Assembly (NCBI GenBank): GCA_001785615.1
Contig: MFUG01000017.1
Coordinates: 1-40,379 of the forward strand
DNA length: 40,379 bases
Direction: 5' to 3'
Source: Candidatus Nomurabacteria bacterium RIFCSPHIGHO2_02_FULL_42_19
GTDB taxonomy: Bacteria; Patescibacteriota; Minisyncoccia; Phycocordibacterales; UBA9973
Shown: positions 15,970 through 35,181 of the stretch, in pieces
How positions within the stretch are numbered: position 1 is the first letter of the stretch
How the letters are laid out: each line of letters begins with the position of its first letter
Notes under the pieces: model-generated
What the model was told of the DNA's origin: nothing
The model's database searches: none
Seen by the model: only the letters and a program-made list of their open reading frames with translations
Position numbers and translations under genes: made by a program

Positions 15970-16587
15970 TTAACAGTACCCCATCAATCTAAAATGTCTT
16001 TCAACTTTTTCTTCTCTTGAAATACTTTCTACTGTTAAAATTTCTACATACTTCCCTACTCCAAAGAAGTCAGCGATGAAAATAATTTCATCCTCACAGG
16101 GATAAGGATAAATCCAGGCGGATTTTTGGAATTGGAAAAAATCTAGTTCTTTCAAGTGATACCGCAAGGCCTCTCTGCCTTTGGTAAATCTCATGGGTAT
16201 GTCAAACATTACCAGTCGCCACTTCCCGTCCCATTTTTTGGGTTTCTTTATTTCCATAAGATCAATAGAAAAAGCTCGTAATCTTGTTTCCCCCTTTGTG
16301 GTAATTTTTACTATTGTTTTGCCATTTTTGTCGGATATGTATTCAATAAGTTTTTGATGGCGGAGATAGTTGATTGAATCTTTAATCTGTCTATCACTAA
16401 ATCGTTTGGAGGTCTTAAACTGCTTAAAAACTTGCACGGCATTGCCCATAGAAGCCGCTATAAAAATAAGAGCTGGTGCCGAAGCAACGGCTAATACACA
16501 AAGTGCGACTTTTGTGATTTTCGCTTTTGGTGTTCCGGAGTCCAAAAATTCTTTTAATCTAGAAAAATATTTATTCTCGTTACTCAT
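15970..16587 (-). CDS. PaaX-C/Cas2-like protein with wHTH (copy 1)
   Basis: ITTKG wing; WDGKWRLVMFDIP, REALRYHLKELDFFQFQKSAWIYPYPC. Confidence 0.85.
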   Translation of the reverse strand: MSNENKYFSRLKEFLDSGTPKAKITKVALCVLAVASAPALIFIAASMGNAVQVFKQFKTSKRFSDRQIKDSINYLRHQKLIEYISDKNGKTIVKITTKGETRLRAFSIDLMEIKKPKKWDGKWRLVMFDIPMRFTKGREALRYHLKELDFFQFQKSAWIYPYPCEDEIIFIADFFGVGKYVEILTVESISREEKVERHFRLMGYC

Positions 16588-18771: not shown

Positions 18772-20796
18772 ATGAAAAAAGCCGACAAACAAACTAATAA
18801 ATTAACGGGCATTATCTCCATCTCCTCCAAAGGCACAGGATACGTCGCAGTCGGAGCGGATAAAAACAAGGGTCAGGATCCGGAAGTTGATTTCAAGCAC
18901 TTGAATACAGCTCTACACGGAGACATGGTAGAAATAGTTCTACACCCAAAAGGAAAGGGGCGGCAAACGGCTGAGGTTTCAAGAATAATCAATAGGGTTA
19001 AAGATAGCTTCGTTGGGATCCTGGAGCTCGAAAATAATATATTTTTCTTCAAACCAGATGATACGAAAATGTACACCGATATCATCGTGCCGGAAAGTGC
19101 GCTAAATGGAGCAAATGCCGGAGACAAGGTCTTTGTAAAAATTGTTTCCTGGAAAGATCCCCGCAAAGCGCCTGAAGGAAAAGTAGAAAAGGTCCTGGGC
19201 CGACCCGGCGACAACAACGTAGAGATGGAGTCCATCGCGCTCGAGAAGGGTTTTGGCGCGAAACTTCCCACCCAAGTAGAAGAAGAAGCGATAAAAATAA
19301 AAGCGTTGGGAATTGAAGAGTCGGACTATGCGGGTCGGCGGGATTTCAGAGGCACTCTTACTTTTACTATTGATCCCGATACCGCCAAGGACTTTGACGA
19401 CGCAATATCTTTCTGTGAGCTCCCCTCCTTAAATAAGGAGGGGGCTGGGAGTGGTAAAAAGCACCACCCCGCCTACGGCACCCCTCCTTCAAAAGGAGGG
19501 GAACTTTACGAAATAGGAATTCACATTGCGGACGTATCGCACTATGTGAAAATAGGCAGTGGAATTGACGTGGAGGCGCGCGAGCGAGGAACTTCGGTAT
19601 ATTTGGTGGACCGAACCATCCCCATGTTGCCGGAAATTTTATCGAACGATTTGTGCAGCTTAATGCCCGACCAAGATCGCCTCACCATGAGCGCTGTTTT
19701 TGTTATAGATAAAAATGCACAGGTGAAAAGTGAATGGTTCGGGAAGACAGTAATCCATTCACGAAAACGACTCACTTATGAAGGGGCCGAGAACTCAATA
19801 AAAAAAGCAAACGCGCCCTTCCATAAAGAGCTTGTGGTTTTGAATAATTTAGCGAAGAAATTAACCAAGGAGAGATTTGCTCAAGGCGCAATATCGCTGG
19901 ATCAGGAAGAAGTGCAATTTGTATTGGACTCCGACGGAACACCGCTAAAAGTAATCAAGAAAGAACGAGGCGATTCAAATAGATTAATTGAGGAATTTAT
20001 GCTTTTGGCGAATAAAAAAGTAGCAGAAGTAATTTCACCGAAAAATATCAAGGGGGTAAAAAGCGGAATGAAAAGTGAAGGGGTATCAATATATAGAGTG
20101 CATGATTTGCCGAGTAAAGAAAAAATGGCTGATCTGGCTTTTTTCTTGCGAGGGCTAGGATACAAGATTACTCTTAGAGACGGACTTATCCCATCTCATG
20201 AAATAAACAAACTGCTAGAGGGCCTGGAGGGCAAAGATGAGAAAGATACAGTGCATCGCGCCGTCATCCGCTCCATGGCCAAAGCGATTTATTCTACTAA
20301 AAATATCGGGCACTATGGGCTCGCCTTTTCATATTACACCCACTTCACTTCCCCGATTAGACGGTACCCGGACATAATAGTACACCGTCTACTAGATGAT
20401 TACTTAAAAGGTAAAAAAATTAGTCAGGAAAAGTTTCACCTTTACGAAGAAATGTCTTTGCGCGCATCAGACCAGGAAAAGCGCGCCTCGGATGCAGAAC
20501 GGGCCTCGATAAAATATAAACAAGTAGAATACATGAGTAAACGCTTGGGTTCATCTTTCGCAGGGGTTATCAGCGGCATAACCGAATGGGGGCTGTATGT
20601 TGAAGAAAAGGAGACGAAGTGCGAGGGCCTGGTGCGAGTGCGCGATATGAATGATGATTTTTATATTTTCAATGAAAAGAAATTTGAGTTGGTCGGACAA
20701 AAGAAGAAAAAGAGGTATCGTCTGGGCGATCGTGTTAAAATAAAAGTAAAAGGAGTTGATTTGGAACGGAAAACGATTGATTATGTTTTAGTATGA
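18772..20796 (+). CDS. rnr: Ribonuclease R
   Basis: FTIDPDTAKDFDDA, HIADVSHYV, IEEFMLLAN, YTHFTSPIRRYPD, C-terminal S1. Confidence 0.96.
   Translation: MKKADKQTNKLTGIISISSKGTGYVAVGADKNKGQDPEVDFKHLNTALHGDMVEIVLHPKGKGRQTAEVSRIINRVKDSFVGILELENNIFFFKPDDTKMYTDIIVPESALNGANAGDKVFVKIVSWKDPRKAPEGKVEKVLGRPGDNNVEMESIALEKGFGAKLPTQVEEEAIKIKALGIEESDYAGRRDFRGTLTFTIDPDTAKDFDDAISFCELPSLNKEGAGSGKKHHPAYGTPPSKGGELYEIGIHIADVSHYVKIGSGIDVEARERGTSVYLVDRTIPMLPEILSNDLCSLMPDQDRLTMSAVFVIDKNAQVKSEWFGKTVIHSRKRLTYEGAENSIKKANAPFHKELVVLNNLAKKLTKERFAQGAISLDQEEVQFVLDSDGTPLKVIKKERGDSNRLIEEFMLLANKKVAEVISPKNIKGVKSGMKSEGVSIYRVHDLPSKEKMADLAFFLRGLGYKITLRDGLIPSHEINKLLEGLEGKDEKDTVHRAVIRSMAKAIYSTKNIGHYGLAFSYYTHFTSPIRRYPDIIVHRLLDDYLKGKKISQEKFHLYEEMSLRASDQEKRASDAERASIKYKQVEYMSKRLGSSFAGVISGITEWGLYVEEKETKCEGLVRVRDMNDDFYIFNEKKFELVGQKKKKRYRLGDRVKIKVKGVDLERKTIDYVLV
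19420..19502. repeat. REP-like double hairpin inserted in frame in rnr
   Basis: CCCCTCCTT-AAAT-AAGGAGGGG ... CCCCTCCTT-CAA-AAGGAGGGG; same family as 4908-5000. Confidence 0.85.
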
Positions 20797-22727
20797 GATC
20801 CACTTTAAGCACTAAGATGAAATGGGCGGTTGGGGCGATATTCACTATTGCCAGCTTGGTTTTTATCATTTTTCTGGGGTCTTCTGTATTAAAAAATATT
20901 GCCTATAACGAAGAAGGAGTTCTTCAGTTGGCGAGCGTGAGTGAAGCGCCGCTTGGAGTAGCAGCGGAAGTAGCTCCTAAATATTTTTATTTCAATAAGG
21001 GTTCAAATGTCGGGCCAAATGTCTCGGCGCTCTCGTACCTGGTCGGCGACCTGGATACAGGAGAAATTGTGCTAGTAAAAAATAAAGACCAAAGAATGTC
21101 CATCGCTTCAGTTACCAAACTCATGACGGCGTTGGTGGCTCGGGAGATAAGCGATGCGGAAGACGTCGCTTTAGTAAGTAAAAAGGCGCTTTCCACTTAT
21201 GGCGGAAATGGTAGTTTTAGTGTGGGAGAAAAAGTAAAAATAAGCGATCTCTTTTATCCCCTACTGTTAGAGTCAAGTAACGACGCCGCGGAAATATTGG
21301 CGGAACATTTCGGACGAGACATTTTTATTGAAAAAATGAACCGGGAAGCAGAAATATTGCGGATGTCCGCGACTTCCTATGAAGATCCCAGCGGATTATC
21401 CGTGAACAATCAGTCAACTGTTTACGATATTTTCAAACTAGTAGGATACATAAAAAAAGAAAAACGGGACTTATTGCAAATTACCACCGCAAGAAGTTAT
21501 TCAAGTAAAAGTCATAACTGGTCAAGCAACAACCAATTTTTGCGTGAAATAGGATACTTGGGCGGAAAAAGTGGCTACACCGACCCCGCCAAACAAACCG
21601 TCGTCTCTCTTTTCTCACTACCCTTGGGCGAAAATGGAAACAGATCGCTCGCTATTACCCTTCTAGGGAGCAAAGATCGCTATAAAGATGTGGAAAATAT
21701 CGTAAAATATTTGCAGAAATATATATATTACGGCGGAGAAGTGGGGGCTAACAACGCCTGGGTTAAACAACAAAACGGCATACCAGAAATTAAAGATCCG
21801 GATTTTGTGACCTTCACCTTCTTGGGAGACATCATGCTTGACCGGGGAGTAAAAAATTCGGTAATAAAAAATTTCGCTGGCGACTATTCGGCTTTGTTTG
21901 AAAGATTAGAAACATTGAAAAAGTCCGACATTGTTTTCGCCAACTTAGAAGGCACCGCGTCCGACAAGGGTAAAGACAGCAGAAATTTATATTCTTTTAG
22001 AATGGACCCTTCTATCTTACCCGCGCTCAGGGGTGCAGGGATAAGTATTTTATCCGTTGCCAACAACCACATTGGCGATTTCGGTCATGAGGCCTATGTT
22101 GATACTCTGGCGCGTTTGCAGGAAAATGAAATACTCTATACGGGTGGAGGAATAACTAGCGATGAGGCAGAAAGGCCACAGATTATTGAAAAGTATGGAA
22201 TGAAAATCGGCTTCATTGGATTTTCCGACCAAGGGCCGGACTGGATGAGAGCCAAAGAGGGTCAGGCGGGAATCCTGCTTGCCAGCAATCCGCGTTTTGA
22301 AGAAATAATTCAAAATGCTTCACGGCAAGTGGACTATTTAGTGGTATCGTTTCATTTTGGCGAAGAATATCAGACCGAACATGATGATAGACAGGAATCT
22401 TTGGCTCATCGGGCCATAGACAACGGCGCGAAAATTGTAGTGGGCCATCACCCGCATGTGATGCAGGATACCGAGGTCTATAGCTCAAAAGATTGCACTC
22501 AAAGTTCGTGCGTGGGCTATATCATTTATTCGCTTGGTAATTTTATTTTTGATCAAGGATTTAGCGAGGACACCATGCAGGGGCTAATGCTGGGGTTGAA
22601 GTTATGGAGGGATGGCAGTATTTCCGTCACAAAAAATATTTTAAAGTTAAATAGGGTCTTCCAGCCAGATACAATAATTAAAGGCAAGGAGGAGAAACTA
22701 AAATTCGCAGAGACATTGATTCCGTAG
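20793..22727 (+). CDS. Fusion of D-Ala-D-Ala carboxypeptidase (peptidase S11) and CapA/PGA_cap metallophosphatase-like domain
   Basis: SVTK, SSN, KSG penicillin-binding motifs; GDIMLDR, NLEG, ANNH, HFGEEY, GHHPHV, YSLGNF. Confidence 0.9.
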   Translation: MRSTLSTKMKWAVGAIFTIASLVFIIFLGSSVLKNIAYNEEGVLQLASVSEAPLGVAAEVAPKYFYFNKGSNVGPNVSALSYLVGDLDTGEIVLVKNKDQRMSIASVTKLMTALVAREISDAEDVALVSKKALSTYGGNGSFSVGEKVKISDLFYPLLLESSNDAAEILAEHFGRDIFIEKMNREAEILRMSATSYEDPSGLSVNNQSTVYDIFKLVGYIKKEKRDLLQITTARSYSSKSHNWSSNNQFLREIGYLGGKSGYTDPAKQTVVSLFSLPLGENGNRSLAITLLGSKDRYKDVENIVKYLQKYIYYGGEVGANNAWVKQQNGIPEIKDPDFVTFTFLGDIMLDRGVKNSVIKNFAGDYSALFERLETLKKSDIVFANLEGTASDKGKDSRNLYSFRMDPSILPALRGAGISILSVANNHIGDFGHEAYVDTLARLQENEILYTGGGITSDEAERPQIIEKYGMKIGFIGFSDQGPDWMRAKEGQAGILLASNPRFEEIIQNASRQVDYLVVSFHFGEEYQTEHDDRQESLAHRAIDNGAKIVVGHHPHVMQDTEVYSSKDCTQSSCVGYIIYSLGNFIFDQGFSEDTMQGLMLGLKLWRDGSISVTKNILKLNRVFQPDTIIKGKEEKLKFAETLIP

Positions 22728-22816: not shown

Positions 22817-23350
22817 ATGGTTGAAAGAAAGCATATAGTAAAATTCAAAAGATTTATTGATTCAGGAAGTAAAGGTTTAGATTTAACAAAAACTCTCCTA
22901 TTCTCTGTCGCCTTGGGTGAAAAACTATCGCCTGACCTCTATAATAAAAGAAAGGTGACACAAGCGTTTAGTGGTCTTAGACGTTACAAGTTCATAAAAA
23001 AGAATAAAAACCGTGACATTTACTCGCTCACTACTAAAGGCGAGAATCGATTGCGTCATATTGTCATAGACGATATTGAAATAAAGAAAGCTAGAAACTG
23101 GGATGGTAAGTGGCGTTTAGTGATGTATGATCTTCCTATAAGATTCAAAAAAGCTAGAAATGCTTTCAGGTGGAAGCTTAAGGATTTGGGATTTTTTCAA
23201 TTTCAAAAAAGTGTTTGGATTTATCCTTATCCCTGTGAAGGAGAAGTGGTGTTTGTTGCTGACTTTTTCGGAGTTCGTAAGTATGTAGAGATATTAGGAG
23301 TGAATGAACTTTCTGACGATAGAAAAATAAGATACCACTTCGGCCTATGA
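22817..23350 (+). CDS. PaaX-C/Cas2-like protein with wHTH (copy 2)
   Basis: LTTKG; WDGKWRLVMYDLP, RNAFRWKLKDLGFFQFQKSVWIYPYPC. Confidence 0.85.
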   Translation: MVERKHIVKFKRFIDSGSKGLDLTKTLLFSVALGEKLSPDLYNKRKVTQAFSGLRRYKFIKKNKNRDIYSLTTKGENRLRHIVIDDIEIKKARNWDGKWRLVMYDLPIRFKKARNAFRWKLKDLGFFQFQKSVWIYPYPCEGEVVFVADFFGVRKYVEILGVNELSDDRKIRYHFGL

Positions 23351-23434: not shown

Positions 23435-25591
23435 TTATTTCGCAATAGCGACGGCTTCGTCGAATTTTACGGAGAGAAGTTTGGAGGCAGAGTCGAAACC
23501 GATAGTAACACCATAGAGCATGCTTGCGCGAGACATGGTCTCGCGGTTATGCGTCACCACAACGAGCTGTGAATGTTTGGAGAGTTTTTCTAGCATATCG
23601 CCGTATTTGCGCGAGTTGGCTTCGTCCAGCGCCGCATCCGTCTCGTCGAGCACCAAAAACGGCGGCGGGTTTACCTGCGACATGGCAAAGAGGAGCGCGA
23701 TAGAAGTAAGCGACCGCTCCCCGCCGGATAGCGCCTGCAATTCTTTAACTTTTTTGTGCGGAAGCGAAACATTTATATCTATCCCCTGCTCTGGAGTGGT
23801 TTCATCTTCTTCAAAAGGCACTTCGCCCTCTTCTTCCATAGCTTCATCTCTTTTTTTCTTTTTATTTTCAACTATTACCGAGAGGGATCCTGAACCTCCT
23901 CCGAACATTAGGGTGAAAAATTCCTTAAACTCTATATTTATTTTCTTAATACCTTCCTTGAATTCAACATCTACTTTCTCTTTCAAGTCAGCCATGATTT
24001 TTTCCAGCGATTTGACGCTCTCCGCCAGATCTTCCATTTCTTTGGTTAAAAATTTATCCCGCTCCGAGACCTCATTGAATTCTTTTAATATTTCGCTTCC
24101 CCCGCCTACCCCCGCATCTTCTAATTTTATTTTAATGCGTTCTATTTTTTTCCTTAATTCCTCTTGTTCTTCTGGATTGATCAATACCTGCCCGCCAGGG
24201 ACGGATCCGTCTTGGGCGGAAAAAGTTTTATAAGAAAGAATTTCCTCGCCAATAAGTGCTCGTCCTTCTCGGACTTCATTTTGAAATGTTTCCTCCCCTT
24301 TTGACACGTTGGCTTCTTTAATATTTATGAGCTCTAAATTTGAAGAGAGTTCCTGGTATTTCACCTTCCAGGCAAATTTCTCCCGCTCTTTATCACGAAG
24401 CGACTCCATTTCTTTATTGATTGCCTGCTTGAGTGTTTCAATTGACTGAACCCCCTTTTTCTCGGCAGCTTCCAAATTTTTCATTTCAGCTAAAATACTG
24501 GTGTGCGAATTCTTTAGTGCCTGTAGTTCTTTTTCTTCATTCTGCCTTTTTTCTATCTGTTCCGGATGCATCTCTTTTATTTCATTCCCGCAGAGCGGAC
24601 AGCGGCCGGCAATTTTAACCTTATTTTCTTTCGCTTCCAGTATGCCTTCAATCCGCCCTAGTTGGCGTCCCTTCTCGTTCTTTTCATTTCGAATTTCATT
24701 TACTTTTTCTTCCACCTCACGAAGCTCCTCGATTTTTTTATTGCCTGTCCTGGAGGTTTCATCCGGAATATCGGAAATTTTGGCATCAATACCTTTTAGC
24801 TCATTTAGTATTTTGCTTTTTTCTTTGGCTAAATGACTTTTTTCATTTTCAAGAAATATGCTTTCTTTTTTCAAATACTCGCGGTATAAAATAGCGAGCT
24901 CGGCGCTCATCTTCTTGGCCTTTTCAAATTTTTCTACTTGCCTCTCTAGGAATTTAAGGTGTGGGGCATTCTCCCTGCGCAAGAGCACAACTTCTTTCAT
25001 GTTTTCGCGGGTTCGCTCCAGCTTACGCTCGGACTCCTTTATTTTATATTGATAAATTTTGAGTCCGAGCGCGTCTTCTATCATTTCTTTTCTATCCTTG
25101 GGCGATGCATTTAAGATTCTATCCGCTTCGCCCTGAGAGATGATGTGGTGCCCGGAAGAGCCCACGTTTACTGAGGCCAAAAGGTTGTTTATGTCTTTGA
25201 GTCGTACTTCCGAACCGTTTAAGATATATTTATTGAGCCCATCGGTATAAACCTCTCGAGCAATTGAAATGGTATCGTAATTTAAATTTATGTCTTCTCC
25301 CCCATCGTTCGTTAGTTTGAAAATTTTATCCGAGTTATCAAAATAAATTGCCACACTTGCTCTGTTTCCTTTCGGCAATTGCTTAGATCCTTTGAAAATT
25401 AAATCGGTTCCGGCCTTTCCACGCATGGACTTCATGGACTGCTCACCTAAAACATAACGGATCGCCTCCACTACGTTTGATTTCCCGGAACCATTGGGCC
25501 CCACAATGCAGACGATGGGATGAGTGAATTCCAGAACCGTTTTTTTAGAAAAGGACTTAAAACCATTGAGTTCGATGCTTTTCAGTCGCAT
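23435..25591 (-). CDS. smc: Short SMC-family ATPase with no hinge and a central CPLC
   Basis: GFKSF, GPNGSGKSN, Q-loop ISQG, LSGGE, LDETDAALD, VVTH; follows rnc as smc usually does. Confidence 0.85.
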   Translation of the reverse strand: MRLKSIELNGFKSFSKKTVLEFTHPIVCIVGPNGSGKSNVVEAIRYVLGEQSMKSMRGKAGTDLIFKGSKQLPKGNRASVAIYFDNSDKIFKLTNDGGEDINLNYDTISIAREVYTDGLNKYILNGSEVRLKDINNLLASVNVGSSGHHIISQGEADRILNASPKDRKEMIEDALGLKIYQYKIKESERKLERTRENMKEVVLLRRENAPHLKFLERQVEKFEKAKKMSAELAILYREYLKKESIFLENEKSHLAKEKSKILNELKGIDAKISDIPDETSRTGNKKIEELREVEEKVNEIRNEKNEKGRQLGRIEGILEAKENKVKIAGRCPLCGNEIKEMHPEQIEKRQNEEKELQALKNSHTSILAEMKNLEAAEKKGVQSIETLKQAINKEMESLRDKEREKFAWKVKYQELSSNLELINIKEANVSKGEETFQNEVREGRALIGEEILSYKTFSAQDGSVPGGQVLINPEEQEELRKKIERIKIKLEDAGVGGGSEILKEFNEVSERDKFLTKEMEDLAESVKSLEKIMADLKEKVDVEFKEGIKKINIEFKEFFTLMFGGGSGSLSVIVENKKKKRDEAMEEEGEVPFEEDETTPEQGIDINVSLPHKKVKELQALSGGERSLTSIALLFAMSQVNPPPFLVLDETDAALDEANSRKYGDMLEKLSKHSQLVVVTHNRETMSRASMLYGVTIGFDSASKLLSVKFDEAVAIAK
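24186..24220. repeat. REP-like hairpin in frame in smc
   Basis: CCGCC-aggGACGGATCCGTCttg-GGCGG. Confidence 0.65.
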
Positions 25592-25600
25592 ATTGTTTAA

Positions 25601-26296
25601 TTATTCCAGCCAGTTTTTTACTTTTAATGCCGCCTCCGCTGCTTTCTGCTCGGCCTCCTGCTTGCTTTTACCTTTACCTTCAGCAATCATTGTATTTCCA
25701 AATAAAATTCCAACCGTAAAATGCTTATCATGGTCCGGGCCCGATTCATTTAAGACCTTATAAGCGGGTGTAACCAGGGCGAATTCTTGCGCTTTTTCCT
25801 GTACCAAACTTTTCGCGTCGCGCCAGAGTTTCTTATTCACTATCTCTTCGGTCTCTCCGAGCAATGACGCCGTAACAAATTTATTCGCCACTTCGTAACT
25901 CTGATCTAAATAAATAGCTCCCACATATGCTTCGTAGGTGTTGGCCAGAATATATTGCCGCGCTTTACCGTTGTCCTTGGCCTCGCCCTTGGATAATAAT
26001 AAATAGTCATTTAGGCCTATTTTGGAAGCAATTTCAGAAATTATCACCGCGTTCACTAGGGCGCTCCGGACAGCCGTCAGGTCTCCCTCTGTATAATTAG
26101 GATATTTTTTATAAAGGAAATCAGTAACGATGAGTTCCAGCACCGCATCACCCAAGAATTCCAAGCGCTCGTTGTGTGACAGCCCTTCACTAGGATTTTC
26201 ATTTATATAAGAACGATGAATAAAGGCCTGTCGGAGCAAGTTCTTGTCCTTAAAAATTATTTTGGTCTTTTTCTCAAAGTCCGCAAAGTTGATCAT
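25601..26296 (-). CDS. rnc: Ribonuclease III
   Basis: NERLEFLGDAVL; dsRBD with GPDHDK..G.GKSKQEAEQ. Confidence 0.98.
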   Translation of the reverse strand: MINFADFEKKTKIIFKDKNLLRQAFIHRSYINENPSEGLSHNERLEFLGDAVLELIVTDFLYKKYPNYTEGDLTAVRSALVNAVIISEIASKIGLNDYLLLSKGEAKDNGKARQYILANTYEAYVGAIYLDQSYEVANKFVTASLLGETEEIVNKKLWRDAKSLVQEKAQEFALVTPAYKVLNESGPDHDKHFTVGILFGNTMIAEGKGKSKQEAEQKAAEAALKVKNWLE

Positions 26297-26300
26297 ATAT

Positions 26301-27263
26301 TTATTTTTTGTCCCGACCTATGTCGGGATTTCGACTTTGGTCGGAACTAATAATTTCAATAGCTTTAGTAATAAGCGGAATAATGTCATTGTAAATATGT
26401 AAGTCCGGAATTTCTTTCAATTTAAACCACCTAGCGTCGTCCAAGCCGCCTGAGACCTCAAGATTTAACTTTTGGTATTCGGTCTCGGCCAGAAAATACG
26501 AGACCTTTTTCAAAATTTTACCCTTCTCTGGATGCGAAGCCACGTATTGATTCTCTCCCAGTTTTTCTTTTATTTTTATATCTAGACCTATTTCTTCTTT
26601 TATCTCTCTTATTGTTGCTTCTTCTTCTTCCCCGTTTTCAATACTACCTTTTGATAACGTCCAGTATCCGAACACATCATGCACTAAGGCAAAGTAAACA
26701 TCATTGTCTACTCTGGCATAAACCAATGCCCCGCCCTTTTTCTCCACTGGTAATTTACTGGTATCCACTGGTCCCTCGTCTCTCTTTTCTTTTTTCTTCT
26801 TGCTTACTTCGTCTTTGCCGGGCTCGCCAATTTCTTTATAAACCGCGCCCAATACGCCGTTCACAAATTTGCCGGAGTTTTCCCCGCCAAATGTTTTGGC
26901 CAACTCTATGGCTTCATTGATAGCCACTTTCGGAGGTACTTGGGTCCTGTCGCCGAAGAGGAGCTCGGTCAGCCCTATGCGCAAAATATTTCTATCTACT
27001 ACAGAAATTTTATCTAAGGGCCAGTCCGGCGCGGCTTTTTCTATGATTTCATCCACCACGCTTCGTTTCTTTAATATCTGCTCGGTGAGCAAAAATACAA
27101 AATTGTCGTCCTCTAGTCCGGGGGCAAATTCTTTAAGATTTCTAGAGAGAATCTCTTTAATTTTTTCATCCACGGAATCATTTTCGGATTTTTCAGGGGA
27201 CAAGAAGTCCCACTCAAAAAGGGTCTGAAGTACTATTGATCTGGAAAGGTGCCTGTTTGCCAT
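26301..27263 (-). CDS. nusB: NusB fused to a C-terminal NUDIX-like domain
   Basis: RHLSRSIVLQ, DRNILR, VAINEAIELAK, FVNGVLG; then WTLSKG..REIKEEIGL. Start ATG 27263. Confidence 0.92.
   Translation of the reverse strand: MANRHLSRSIVLQTLFEWDFLSPEKSENDSVDEKIKEILSRNLKEFAPGLEDDNFVFLLTEQILKKRSVVDEIIEKAAPDWPLDKISVVDRNILRIGLTELLFGDRTQVPPKVAINEAIELAKTFGGENSGKFVNGVLGAVYKEIGEPGKDEVSKKKKEKRDEGPVDTSKLPVEKKGGALVYARVDNDVYFALVHDVFGYWTLSKGSIENGEEEEATIREIKEEIGLDIKIKEKLGENQYVASHPEKGKILKKVSYFLAETEYQKLNLEVSGGLDDARWFKLKEIPDLHIYNDIIPLITKAIEIISSDQSRNPDIGRDKK
26311..26346. repeat. CCGAC/GTCGG double hairpin forming the nusB C-terminal tail
   Basis: TCCCGAC-CTAT-GTCGGGA then TTCGAC-TTTG-GTCGGA. Confidence 0.7.
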
Positions 27264-27282
27264 AAGTTTCAAAAAACAAGAA

Positions 27283-34050: not shown

Positions 34051-35181
34051 ATGTTAAATTTCGATATAAGTTCCCCGGAAGAACAAACCATAAAGAAGAT
34101 CCTTGAGTCAAAAAACGATGCCCAAAGTATCCGCCTAAAGCGTTATCTAGCCATGCCTGACCTCTCCCGCACCCCGGGCAGTCCACTGGAAGAAGTTGTA
34201 AGGAGGGCAAAGGAAGTTCCATCACTTAAAAATTTTGACGACATAAAAATTCCAGAAGTCGTCCCGACAAAAATTCTCTTTGACTTATTTAACATGCCCC
34301 CAGGACATGGAGCTCGAAGTAAATCCGACACTTACTATGTTGATGAAAATAACGTCCTGCGAACCCACGATACAGTGTTCTGGTATTATTATTTAAATCA
34401 TCCAGAAATCAAAAAACGGATTGAAAATAAGGAAACTCTCGGAGCCATTTGTTATGGTAAGGTTTACCGCAAGGATGAAATTGACCGTCGGCACATGAAT
34501 GTTTTCCATCAATTTGGTGGGTGGTTAATAGCGCCGGACGATAAAAAAAAGATTACACCGGAAGACCTAAAAAATACCCTCTCAGAAATAGCCATAAGTA
34601 TATTTGGAAATATTAATTTTCGTTTCTATGACCATAATTTTCCTTATACAGACCCCTCTTTCGAAATGGAAGCGGAAATTAATAGGGAGTGGATGGAGAT
34701 GTTGGGCTCTGGGATGGTAAGAAAAAGTGTCTTGACTAATTTAGGTCTAACCGGCTACCACGGCTGGGCGTTTGGTTTTGGTTTAGAACGTTTGGCCATA
34801 GCTTCTATGTCTCTCCCGGATATTCGTTTACTCTGGAGTGAAGACCCTAGAGTAAAAAAACAGTTAAAGCTCGGGCAGAAATTTGTAGAGGTGAGTAAGT
34901 ACCCACCAATTGTCCGAGATATTTCTTTCGTAGTAAAAAACGATTTCGTGCCAAATGATTATTTTGATTTTGTGAGAGAAACCGCTCCTGGCATTGTGGA
35001 ACAGGTAGAGCTTTTGGATAAATATAAAAATACGGAAAAATTCGGCATTGGGAAAATAAGTTACGCTTACAGAATCACCTATCGATCGCTAGAACGAACC
35101 CTAATCTCTCAAGAGGTAGATACGCTGCATAAAAAACTAGAAACCGAGACCGCTAAAATTTTTGAGGCAGTAGTACGTTAA
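34051..35181 (+). CDS. Single-chain phenylalanine--tRNA ligase (alpha catalytic domain plus FDX-ACB)
   Basis: LRTH, GKVYRKDEIDRRH..FHQ, FPYTDPSFE, GWAFGFGLERLA, DIRLLW; then SKYPPIVRDISF..YRSLERTL. Confidence 0.9.
   Translation: MLNFDISSPEEQTIKKILESKNDAQSIRLKRYLAMPDLSRTPGSPLEEVVRRAKEVPSLKNFDDIKIPEVVPTKILFDLFNMPPGHGARSKSDTYYVDENNVLRTHDTVFWYYYLNHPEIKKRIENKETLGAICYGKVYRKDEIDRRHMNVFHQFGGWLIAPDDKKKITPEDLKNTLSEIAISIFGNINFRFYDHNFPYTDPSFEMEAEINREWMEMLGSGMVRKSVLTNLGLTGYHGWAFGFGLERLAIASMSLPDIRLLWSEDPRVKKQLKLGQKFVEVSKYPPIVRDISFVVKNDFVPNDYFDFVRETAPGIVEQVELLDKYKNTEKFGIGKISYAYRITYRSLERTLISQEVDTLHKKLETETAKIFEAVVR

Follow-up and report, generated by a model that had tools for sequence, protein, structure and literature searches.

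The minus strand of contig MFUG01000017.1 (assembly GCA_001785615.1, Candidatus Nomurabacteria bacterium RIFCSPHIGHO2_02_FULL_42_19) was analysed over positions 1 to 40,379, a stretch of 40,379 nucleotides referred to below as the window, and was found to carry an intact smc gene with the RNase III gene rnc 9 bases upstream on the same strand, which is the rnc-smc position recognised in the original prediction made from the DNA letters. The 718-residue product is a variant of bacterial Smc and lies outside the Rad50 family; its arms are short, no hinge is found, and a conserved CxxC motif sits at the tip of its coiled coil. As the sole Smc of an ultra-small bacterium of the Patescibacteria with a genome of about 0.6 Mb it is probably the ATPase of an Smc-ScpAB condensin in which the tips are joined by a zinc hook that replaces the hinge.

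Identity of the smc product and its partners

The protein was matched by SMC_N of Pfam over residues 3-697 (E 2.3e-55) and otherwise by generic P-loop families (18 families at E ≤ 1). All head motifs of ABC/SMC ATPases (Walker A, Q-loop, signature, Walker B, D-loop and H-loop) were present, and their residues were mostly invariant in an alignment of 144 sequences. Among the NCBIfam models SMC_prok_B (TIGR02168) gave 499.3 bits and archaeal-type Smc came next with 272 bits; the scores of other SMC-like models were 77.6 (Rad50), 54 (RecF), 48.2 (SbcC), 46.4 (RecN) and 42.5 bits (archaeal ASRP). The respective cut-offs are 567.35 bits for TIGR02168 as an equivalog, 700-1087 for Rad50, 478.5 for SbcC, 407.85 for RecN (TIGR00634) and 300 for ASRP (NF045487). 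When the PDB was searched by sequence with phmmer, the bacterial Smc heads 3zgx and 5xg3 reached about 255 bits compared with 50 for Rad50 and 30 for SbcC, and a Foldseek search with the AlphaFold2 model of the protein had its best match at E 1.3e-30 in 5xei, an Smc head whose structure includes coiled coil and joint, Rad50 being met first at rank 15. All three comparisons favour Smc over Rad50, and the condensin type originally predicted for the heads was thus borne out.

The host assembly (613,937 bases, 18 contigs, 92.5% complete) contained one SMC_N match over the cut-off, which is this gene. The source names attached to homologues of the protein put the organism among Nomurabacteria, Parcubacteria or Paceibacterota. 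The genes scpA (52.2 bits) and scpB (111.5 bits) were found adjacent to each other on contig C3 of the same genome, and two ParB-family proteins are encoded on contigs other than that of smc. No match to sbcD (TIGR00619) was obtained in the genome at this completeness, and a genome-wide search for recN returned only a weak match, the smc gene itself (34.8 bits). It had been remarked that neither scpAB nor sbcD lies in the window; this is correct, and the scpA-scpB pair on contig C3 supplies the former. In a set made up of the host genome and 40 relatives, Smc was detected in 40 of 41 genomes, ScpA in 37 and ScpB in 36. In one genome of the same order (G038, 97% complete) Smc, ScpA and ScpB were all not found, which looks like loss of the whole complex; this joint absence links the short Smc to the kleisin complex.

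A repair ATPase of the Rad50/SbcC or RecN type, mistaken here for Smc, is a very improbable reading. Rad50/SbcC proteins have CxxC at a coiled-coil tip as their hallmark, a length of 718 residues is closer to Rad50 than to canonical Smc, and a weak SbcC_Walker_B match was seen (E 0.011, below the cut-off); these points are set against head scores of 499 bits to Smc and 78, 48 and 46 bits to Rad50, SbcC and RecN, agreement of the sequence and fold searches of the PDB, the rnc-smc synteny, the lack of any sbcD/mre11 match in the genome, and the presence of ScpA and ScpB, which are missing together with Smc in G038. A Rad50/SbcC or RecN identity was rejected on the head scores, the PDB searches and the lack of sbcD and recN, and a relationship to ASRP/ClsN was rejected on a score of 42.5 bits against the cut-off of 300.

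The TIGR02168 score stays below the equivalog cut-off over the full length of the protein, which counts against the Smc-ScpAB reading. The match falls into two stretches, the best of which spans model positions 1-424 of 1181; a protein without the hinge and half of each arm would be expected to score in this way. In favour of a gene in decay, a truncated gene or an assembly artefact that is no longer functional are the low score, a protein about 470 residues short of the 1181-position model, and the strong reduction of the host genome to 614 kb. Such an origin is nevertheless hardly credible: the reading frame is intact, the ATPase motifs are invariant across the 144 sequences, proteins of the same length make up more than 120 homologue clusters, which come from a variety of contigs and sources, the gene is kept in 40 of the 41 genomes of the relatives' set, and the structure was modelled with confidence (mean predicted local distance difference test, pLDDT, 88). 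The homologue clusters, the retention in relatives and the invariance of the motifs led to rejection of the pseudogene or artefact reading.

Arms, tip and cysteine pair

The hinge is regarded as one of the features that define SMC proteins and as important for their function; DNA binding and a role in loading have been proposed for it. No match to SMC_hinge (PF06470) was obtained in the protein with Pfam at E ≤ 1 or anywhere in the host genome (18 contigs, 92.5% complete), and the AlphaFold2 model (mean pLDDT 88.3, predicted template modelling score 0.72, 144-sequence alignment) has no globular domain at the arm tip, in line with the initial description of an Smc of 718 residues without a visible globular hinge. 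The helices of the model follow each other in the order 178-274, 280-328, loop 329-342, 343-447, 449-455, loop 456-472, 473-493 and 498-563, after which comes the C-terminal head; residues 178-328 are predicted to pair with 343-563 in a long antiparallel intramolecular coiled coil of about half the canonical length. The outgoing arm has about 150 residues, or about 22 nm as an arithmetic estimate from the usual helix rise per residue, while Buermann et al. 2017 (PMC5344682) give the arm of Bacillus subtilis Smc as 344 residues and put the length of SMC arms at about 47 nm.

The original prediction placed a CPxCG motif at the apex of the coiled coil, with C331 and C334 at bases 24590-24601, and these coordinates are exact: in the model the CPLC sequence lies in the tip loop between the arm helices 280-328 and 343-447. 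The 120 nearest listed homologue clusters (69-80% identity, 706-740 amino acids) have the consensus K-V-K-[LI]-[SA]-G-[RK]-C-P-[LT]-C-G-x-E-[IL] at the tip, and each of the C, P, C and G of C-P-x-C-G is present in all 120, as is the CxxC in 10 of 10 hook-type congeners (described below), so that its conservation, raised with the prediction as a check, holds. Such strict invariance argues that the motif is not a chance feature. There was no cysteine besides the tip pair in 57 of the 120 clusters; the other 63 add one, at a head position that is not conserved. The nearby His342 is kept in only 39 of the 120. With two conserved cysteines and a histidine of this distribution, four ligands are not available from one chain, and a two-plus-two zinc site across the dimer would be the simplest reading of the alignment.

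Residues 300-365 were searched with phmmer against 177,635 distinct PDB sequences. The Pyrococcus furiosus Rad50 hooks ranked first and second (1l8d, E 0.0062; 6zff, E 0.012), with the aligned pattern G-K/R-C-P-V/L-C-G-x-E-L/I and the coiled-coil flanks included in the match; a profile of 11 hook tips gave E 4.1e-4 for 1l8d and E 6.2e-4 for 6zff. The motif is read as a putative zinc knuckle within a coiled coil, closest in kind to the hook of Rad50; common descent cannot be shown from so short a match. On the likeness to the Rad50/SbcC hook proposed at the outset the searches point both ways: solved Rad50 hooks rank at the top of the PDB search, though with marginal E values, but no match to the Rad50_zn_hook family of Pfam was obtained. 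For two copies of residues 281-392 (alignment A1) with one zinc, the predicted complex scored 0.30 compared with a mark of 0.42 in a run without controls, which weighs neither way on binding.

The features of the locus are collected in Table 1.

Table 1. Features of smc and rnc in the window; residue numbers refer to the Smc protein, positions to the window, and - denotes the minus strand
Feature	Position	Strand	Basis
smc gene	23435..25591	-	intact ATG-started open reading frame, 718 amino acids plus stop codon; SMC_N and TIGR02168 matches
N-terminal ATPase head half, residues 1-177	25061..25591	-	secondary structure, motif positions, residues invariant across 144 sequences
Walker A GPNGSGKS, residues 31-38	25478-25501	-	motif position
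Q-loop region IISQGE, residues 150-155	25127-25144	-	motif position
Outgoing arm helix, residues 178-328, kink at 275-279	24608..25060	-	AlphaFold2 model, helices 178-274 and 280-328
Tip loop, residues 329-342, with GRCPLCGNEI (329-338)	24566..24607	-	AlphaFold2 model, conservation, PDB matches
Cysteine pair C331-P-L-C334 (CPLC)	24590-24601	-	translation of these bases
Returning arm, residues 343-563, break at 494-497	23903..24565	-	AlphaFold2 model
Variable non-helical loop, residues 456-472	24176-24226	-	AlphaFold2 model; gap-rich, variable columns in alignment A1
C-terminal ATPase head half, residues 564-718	23438..23902	-	motif positions, invariant columns
Signature LSGGE, residues 621-625	23717-23731	-	motif position
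Walker B LVLDE, residues 646-650	23642-23656	-	motif position
D-loop TDAALD, residues 651-656	23624-23641	-	motif position
H-loop VVTHN, residues 678-682		-	motif position
rnc (RNase III)	25601-26296	-	Ribonucleas_3_3 E 9.6e-38, dsrm E 1.1e-14

Further upstream of rnc are an open reading frame (ORF) for a NusB-NUDIX fusion and the gene for ribosomal protein L32. The fusion ORF (26301-27272 (-), 323 amino acids), which lies between the L32 gene and rnc, has NusB at residues 10-146 and a NUDIX hydrolase at 202-289. The PaaX central, Cas2-like domain was found in two small ORFs, 22817-23350 (+) and 15970-16587 (-), with E of about 1e-19 to 6e-20, and one of the two immediately follows smc and is encoded on the other strand. 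An ORF of 644 amino acids at 20793-22727 (+) joins Peptidase_S11 (D-Ala-D-Ala carboxypeptidase, residues 75-272) to a PGA_cap capsule-synthesis domain (340-588). In a 376-residue ORF at 34051-35181 (+) the class II catalytic core of phenylalanyl-tRNA synthetase (tRNA-synt_2d, residues 44-271) is joined to FDX-ACB (282-376), a single-chain layout which we take to be that of the mitochondrial type and not of the bacterial alpha2-beta2 enzyme.

Two tip types in the genus and the phylum

The genus is represented by 24 genomes, from 22 of which the gene was fetched, the remaining two being fragments. The hook type, G-[RK]-C-P-x-C-G, was present in 10 of the 22 (699-724 amino acids after trimming to the start); the other 12 were without CxxC, were 738-770 amino acids long and had 0-1 cysteine in the six that were counted. 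Fourteen genes taken from further families of the order were all without CxxC as well. The distance from the LGRxEG motif to the returning arm is 74-120 residues in cysteine-free forms compared with 53-71 in hook forms, and the cysteine-free tip is about 40 residues longer than the hook tip. It was modelled by AlphaFold2 (26-sequence alignment, pLDDT 84.4) as two helices of about 20 residues each that form a hairpin between the arm helices. No SMC_hinge was found in any of 26 cysteine-free tips with Pfam at E ≤ 1, where coiled-coil noise only was returned, and a Foldseek search of the hairpin tip model against the PDB gave coiled-coil look-alikes and no match at E ≤ 0.001. Hook and hairpin are alternative Smc tips in a single genus.

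These congeners bear on how the cysteine pair should be interpreted: the presence of close congeners without a tip cysteine implies that Smc in the group can function without the hook. Together with the sub-cut-off TIGR02168 score, this weighs against the reading as a zinc-hook Smc condensin, as do several of the searches. The tip loop was modelled at low confidence (pLDDT 49-66). The matches to Rad50 hooks in the PDB are marginal (E 0.006 to 4e-4), and generic CPxCG zinc knuckles score alike, a consensus zinc finger reaching 3.9e-4 (three weak repeats summed) and LysW, Nop10 and others following. Rad50_zn_hook (PF04423) matched neither in the protein at E ≤ 1 nor in the genome, the model being an insensitive one that was found in 3 of 14 control genomes.

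From the same observations a true Smc could be argued for in which the cysteines are not an intermolecular zinc site. They might form a structural turn or a redox or disulfide CPxC, or they might bind a different cofactor, for instance a bridging Fe-S cluster, and dimerisation would proceed through the arms, the ATP-engaged heads or ScpA alone. The C-P-x-C wording also occurs in the active sites of thiol-disulfide oxidoreductases, which is in favour of such an arrangement; the sisters of the same genus without a tip cysteine presumably still work; and the low-confidence loop and the marginal, unspecific PDB matches point the same way. We consider it unlikely. No thioredoxin-like fold surrounds the motif, which sits between two long helices, a metal knuckle fits the finding that C, P, C and G never vary in the 120 clusters, and among PDB matches confined to a single stretch the Rad50 hooks come out best, with their coiled-coil flanks aligned as well. 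The hook forms are also without the hairpin of about 40 residues seen in their sisters, so their tips must be held together otherwise. A zinc hook between the two tips is the interpretation followed below.

Beyond the genus, 301 genomes of Patescibacteria, each at least 80% complete, were sampled. TIGR02168 was matched at E ≤ 1e-20 in 115 of them (one of the 115, G190, being flagged unpublished), and SMC_hinge was matched in 8 of the 301, in 7 of these over the cut-off. No TIGR02168 match at E ≤ 1e-20 was obtained in the other 186. The listed Smc frames measure 672-1105 amino acids, most of them about 720-910, and a few shorter ones (366-620 amino acids) are apparently partial. Seven genomes (G076, G101, G129, G167, G235, G250 and G333), belonging to some of the families of the phylum, have Smc frames of about 1080-1105 amino acids, yet none of them is among the eight with a Pfam hinge. 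The best 150 representatives of the query at 50% identity are almost all 643-782 amino acids long. As a rule, Smc has no hinge in the sampled phylum. The shortness and the lack of a hinge, originally noted for this gene, are true of it, but they are the norm across that sample.

A central CxxC occurred in only 6 of the best 150 representatives. A second hook lineage, with the wording C-x-Y-C-G-Q, was present in 46 of the best 120 relatives of the protein P0151 (689-738 amino acids), and the remaining 74, without this wording, were cysteine-free and 727-791 amino acids long. In the match list (P0151, P0271-P0387) the C-x-Y-C-G-Q proteins are interspersed with cysteine-free forms, and some are labelled Vogelbacteria or Paceibacterota.

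The history of the two tips was followed on a main tree of 38 genus-level and outgroup sequences (IQ-TREE quick search, LG+G4, 654 columns, tip columns removed). On this tree hook forms intermingle with hairpin forms; five tip-type changes are needed, and the starred branches force at least three. Forcing the 20 hook forms into one clade cost 95 log-likelihood units (approximately unbiased test, p 9e-5), the group having been named after the first tree had been seen. The hairpin-type gene L010 is nearest to hook forms in both gene halves (80% and 78% identity), and the hook-type gene L032 is nearest to hairpin forms in both (76% and 75%). Separate trees of the N-terminal and C-terminal halves were weakly resolved and force only 1-2 tip changes, a single hook clade being rejected by the concatenated flanks only. 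Nine tip-type changes were needed on a FastTree of 197 sequences, for which four Patescibacteria Smc proteins with a hinge served as the root, branch support being left aside.

The hairpin of the nested form is homologous to the outgroup hairpin, and the hooks of the genus share their flanking wording; this makes repeated origin de novo unlikely. The best explanation of these sequence patterns would be that recombination has exchanged a short tip cassette, and the tip may then behave as an exchangeable dimerisation module. Extended to the phylum, the picture is a tentative one, which we would not yet put at even odds: most of its members would have an Smc-ScpAB without a hinge, and within one genus hook and hairpin would have been swapped at least three times, most likely through cassette recombination between lineages, the tip being an exchangeable 'knot'.

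Proposed mechanism, related systems and significance

In the proposed mechanism two chains would each contribute two cysteines to one tetrahedral Zn2+ at the tips and form a constitutive dimer as in the Rad50/SbcC hook. At the heads, ScpA would bridge and close the dimer and bind ScpB. The smc product probably works with the ParB of the genome, which would target the complex to the origin region, and ATP-driven head engagement would act on DNA as in other Smc-ScpAB complexes. The analysis establishes that the heads are those of Smc, that rnc is adjacent, that the partner genes are present, that the hinge is absent, and that the cysteine pair lies at the tip and is strictly conserved, whereas the binding of zinc, dimerisation by way of the hook and activity as a condensin are inferred.

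With Smc of the B. subtilis type the protein shares the sequence and fold of the heads, the ATPase motifs, an antiparallel arm with a break near the head, the rnc-smc order, and ScpA, ScpB and ParB in the genome. It differs in the lack of a hinge, the CPxCG loop as the tip, an outgoing arm of about 150 residues compared with 344 (the latter from PMC5344682) and a score of 499 bits against a cut-off of 567. The Rad50/SbcC hook (1l8d, 6zff) is similar in having CxxC at the tip of an antiparallel coiled coil and in the wording G-K/R-C-P-x-C-G-x-E-L/I; unlike Rad50/SbcC, the heads reach 78 bits against cut-offs of 700-1087, no Mre11/SbcD was found, the Pfam hook family is not matched, and the partners are ScpA and ScpB in place of a nuclease.

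The closest parallel was made in the laboratory. In B. subtilis Smc(Zh) the hinge was replaced by the P. furiosus Rad50 zinc hook, and the legend describing it calls the chimera functional and reports variants with short arms (Buermann et al. 2017, PMC5344682); the title of another paper states that the 'Rad50 zinc hook functions as a constitutive dimerization module interchangeable with SMC hinge' (PMC6969161). Like Smc(Zh), the protein described here combines Smc heads and arms with a zinc hook, which in this case is predicted; in contrast to the engineered chimera it occurs in nature, where more than 120 clusters conserve the design and another tip alternates with the hook.

Two natural groups are also comparable. 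The archaeal ClsN/ASRP proteins belong to the SMC superfamily and have a zinc-hook motif at the tip, and ClsN is described as acting in chromosome compartment formation (Yoshinaga et al. 2022, PMC9389158); they are a separate, Archaea-specific family, whereas the protein here is a bacterial Smc orthologue. A 'hinge-less' SMC clade from ocean metagenomes is reported to branch within Actinobacteria and to be without CXXC (Sussfeld et al. 2025, PMC12153180), a description that sets it apart from the present protein. No report of a natural zinc-hook Smc orthologue or of a phylum-wide lack of the hinge in Patescibacteria was found in the literature searched, the full-text coverage of which is without most subscription journals, so that absence is not proven.

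If the proposed reading is true, nature has made a swap of the hinge for a zinc knuckle of ten residues that has so far been reported only as an engineered construct (PMC5344682), and constitutive dimerisation would be all that is indispensable in what the tip does. That so few genomes have a hinge (8 of 301) suggests a major lineage-wide feature which has been hidden by labels such as 'AAA family ATPase' and 'hypothetical protein'. With arms of about 150 residues and two tips in near-identical backgrounds, these proteins offer a compact, comparable pair for the biochemistry and structural analysis of loop extrusion. If the tip is only an exchangeable knot, the functions ascribed to the hinge, DNA binding and a DNA gate, would be dispensable for a natural condensin, and the type of knot in a lineage may follow outside pressure, for example the supply of zinc.

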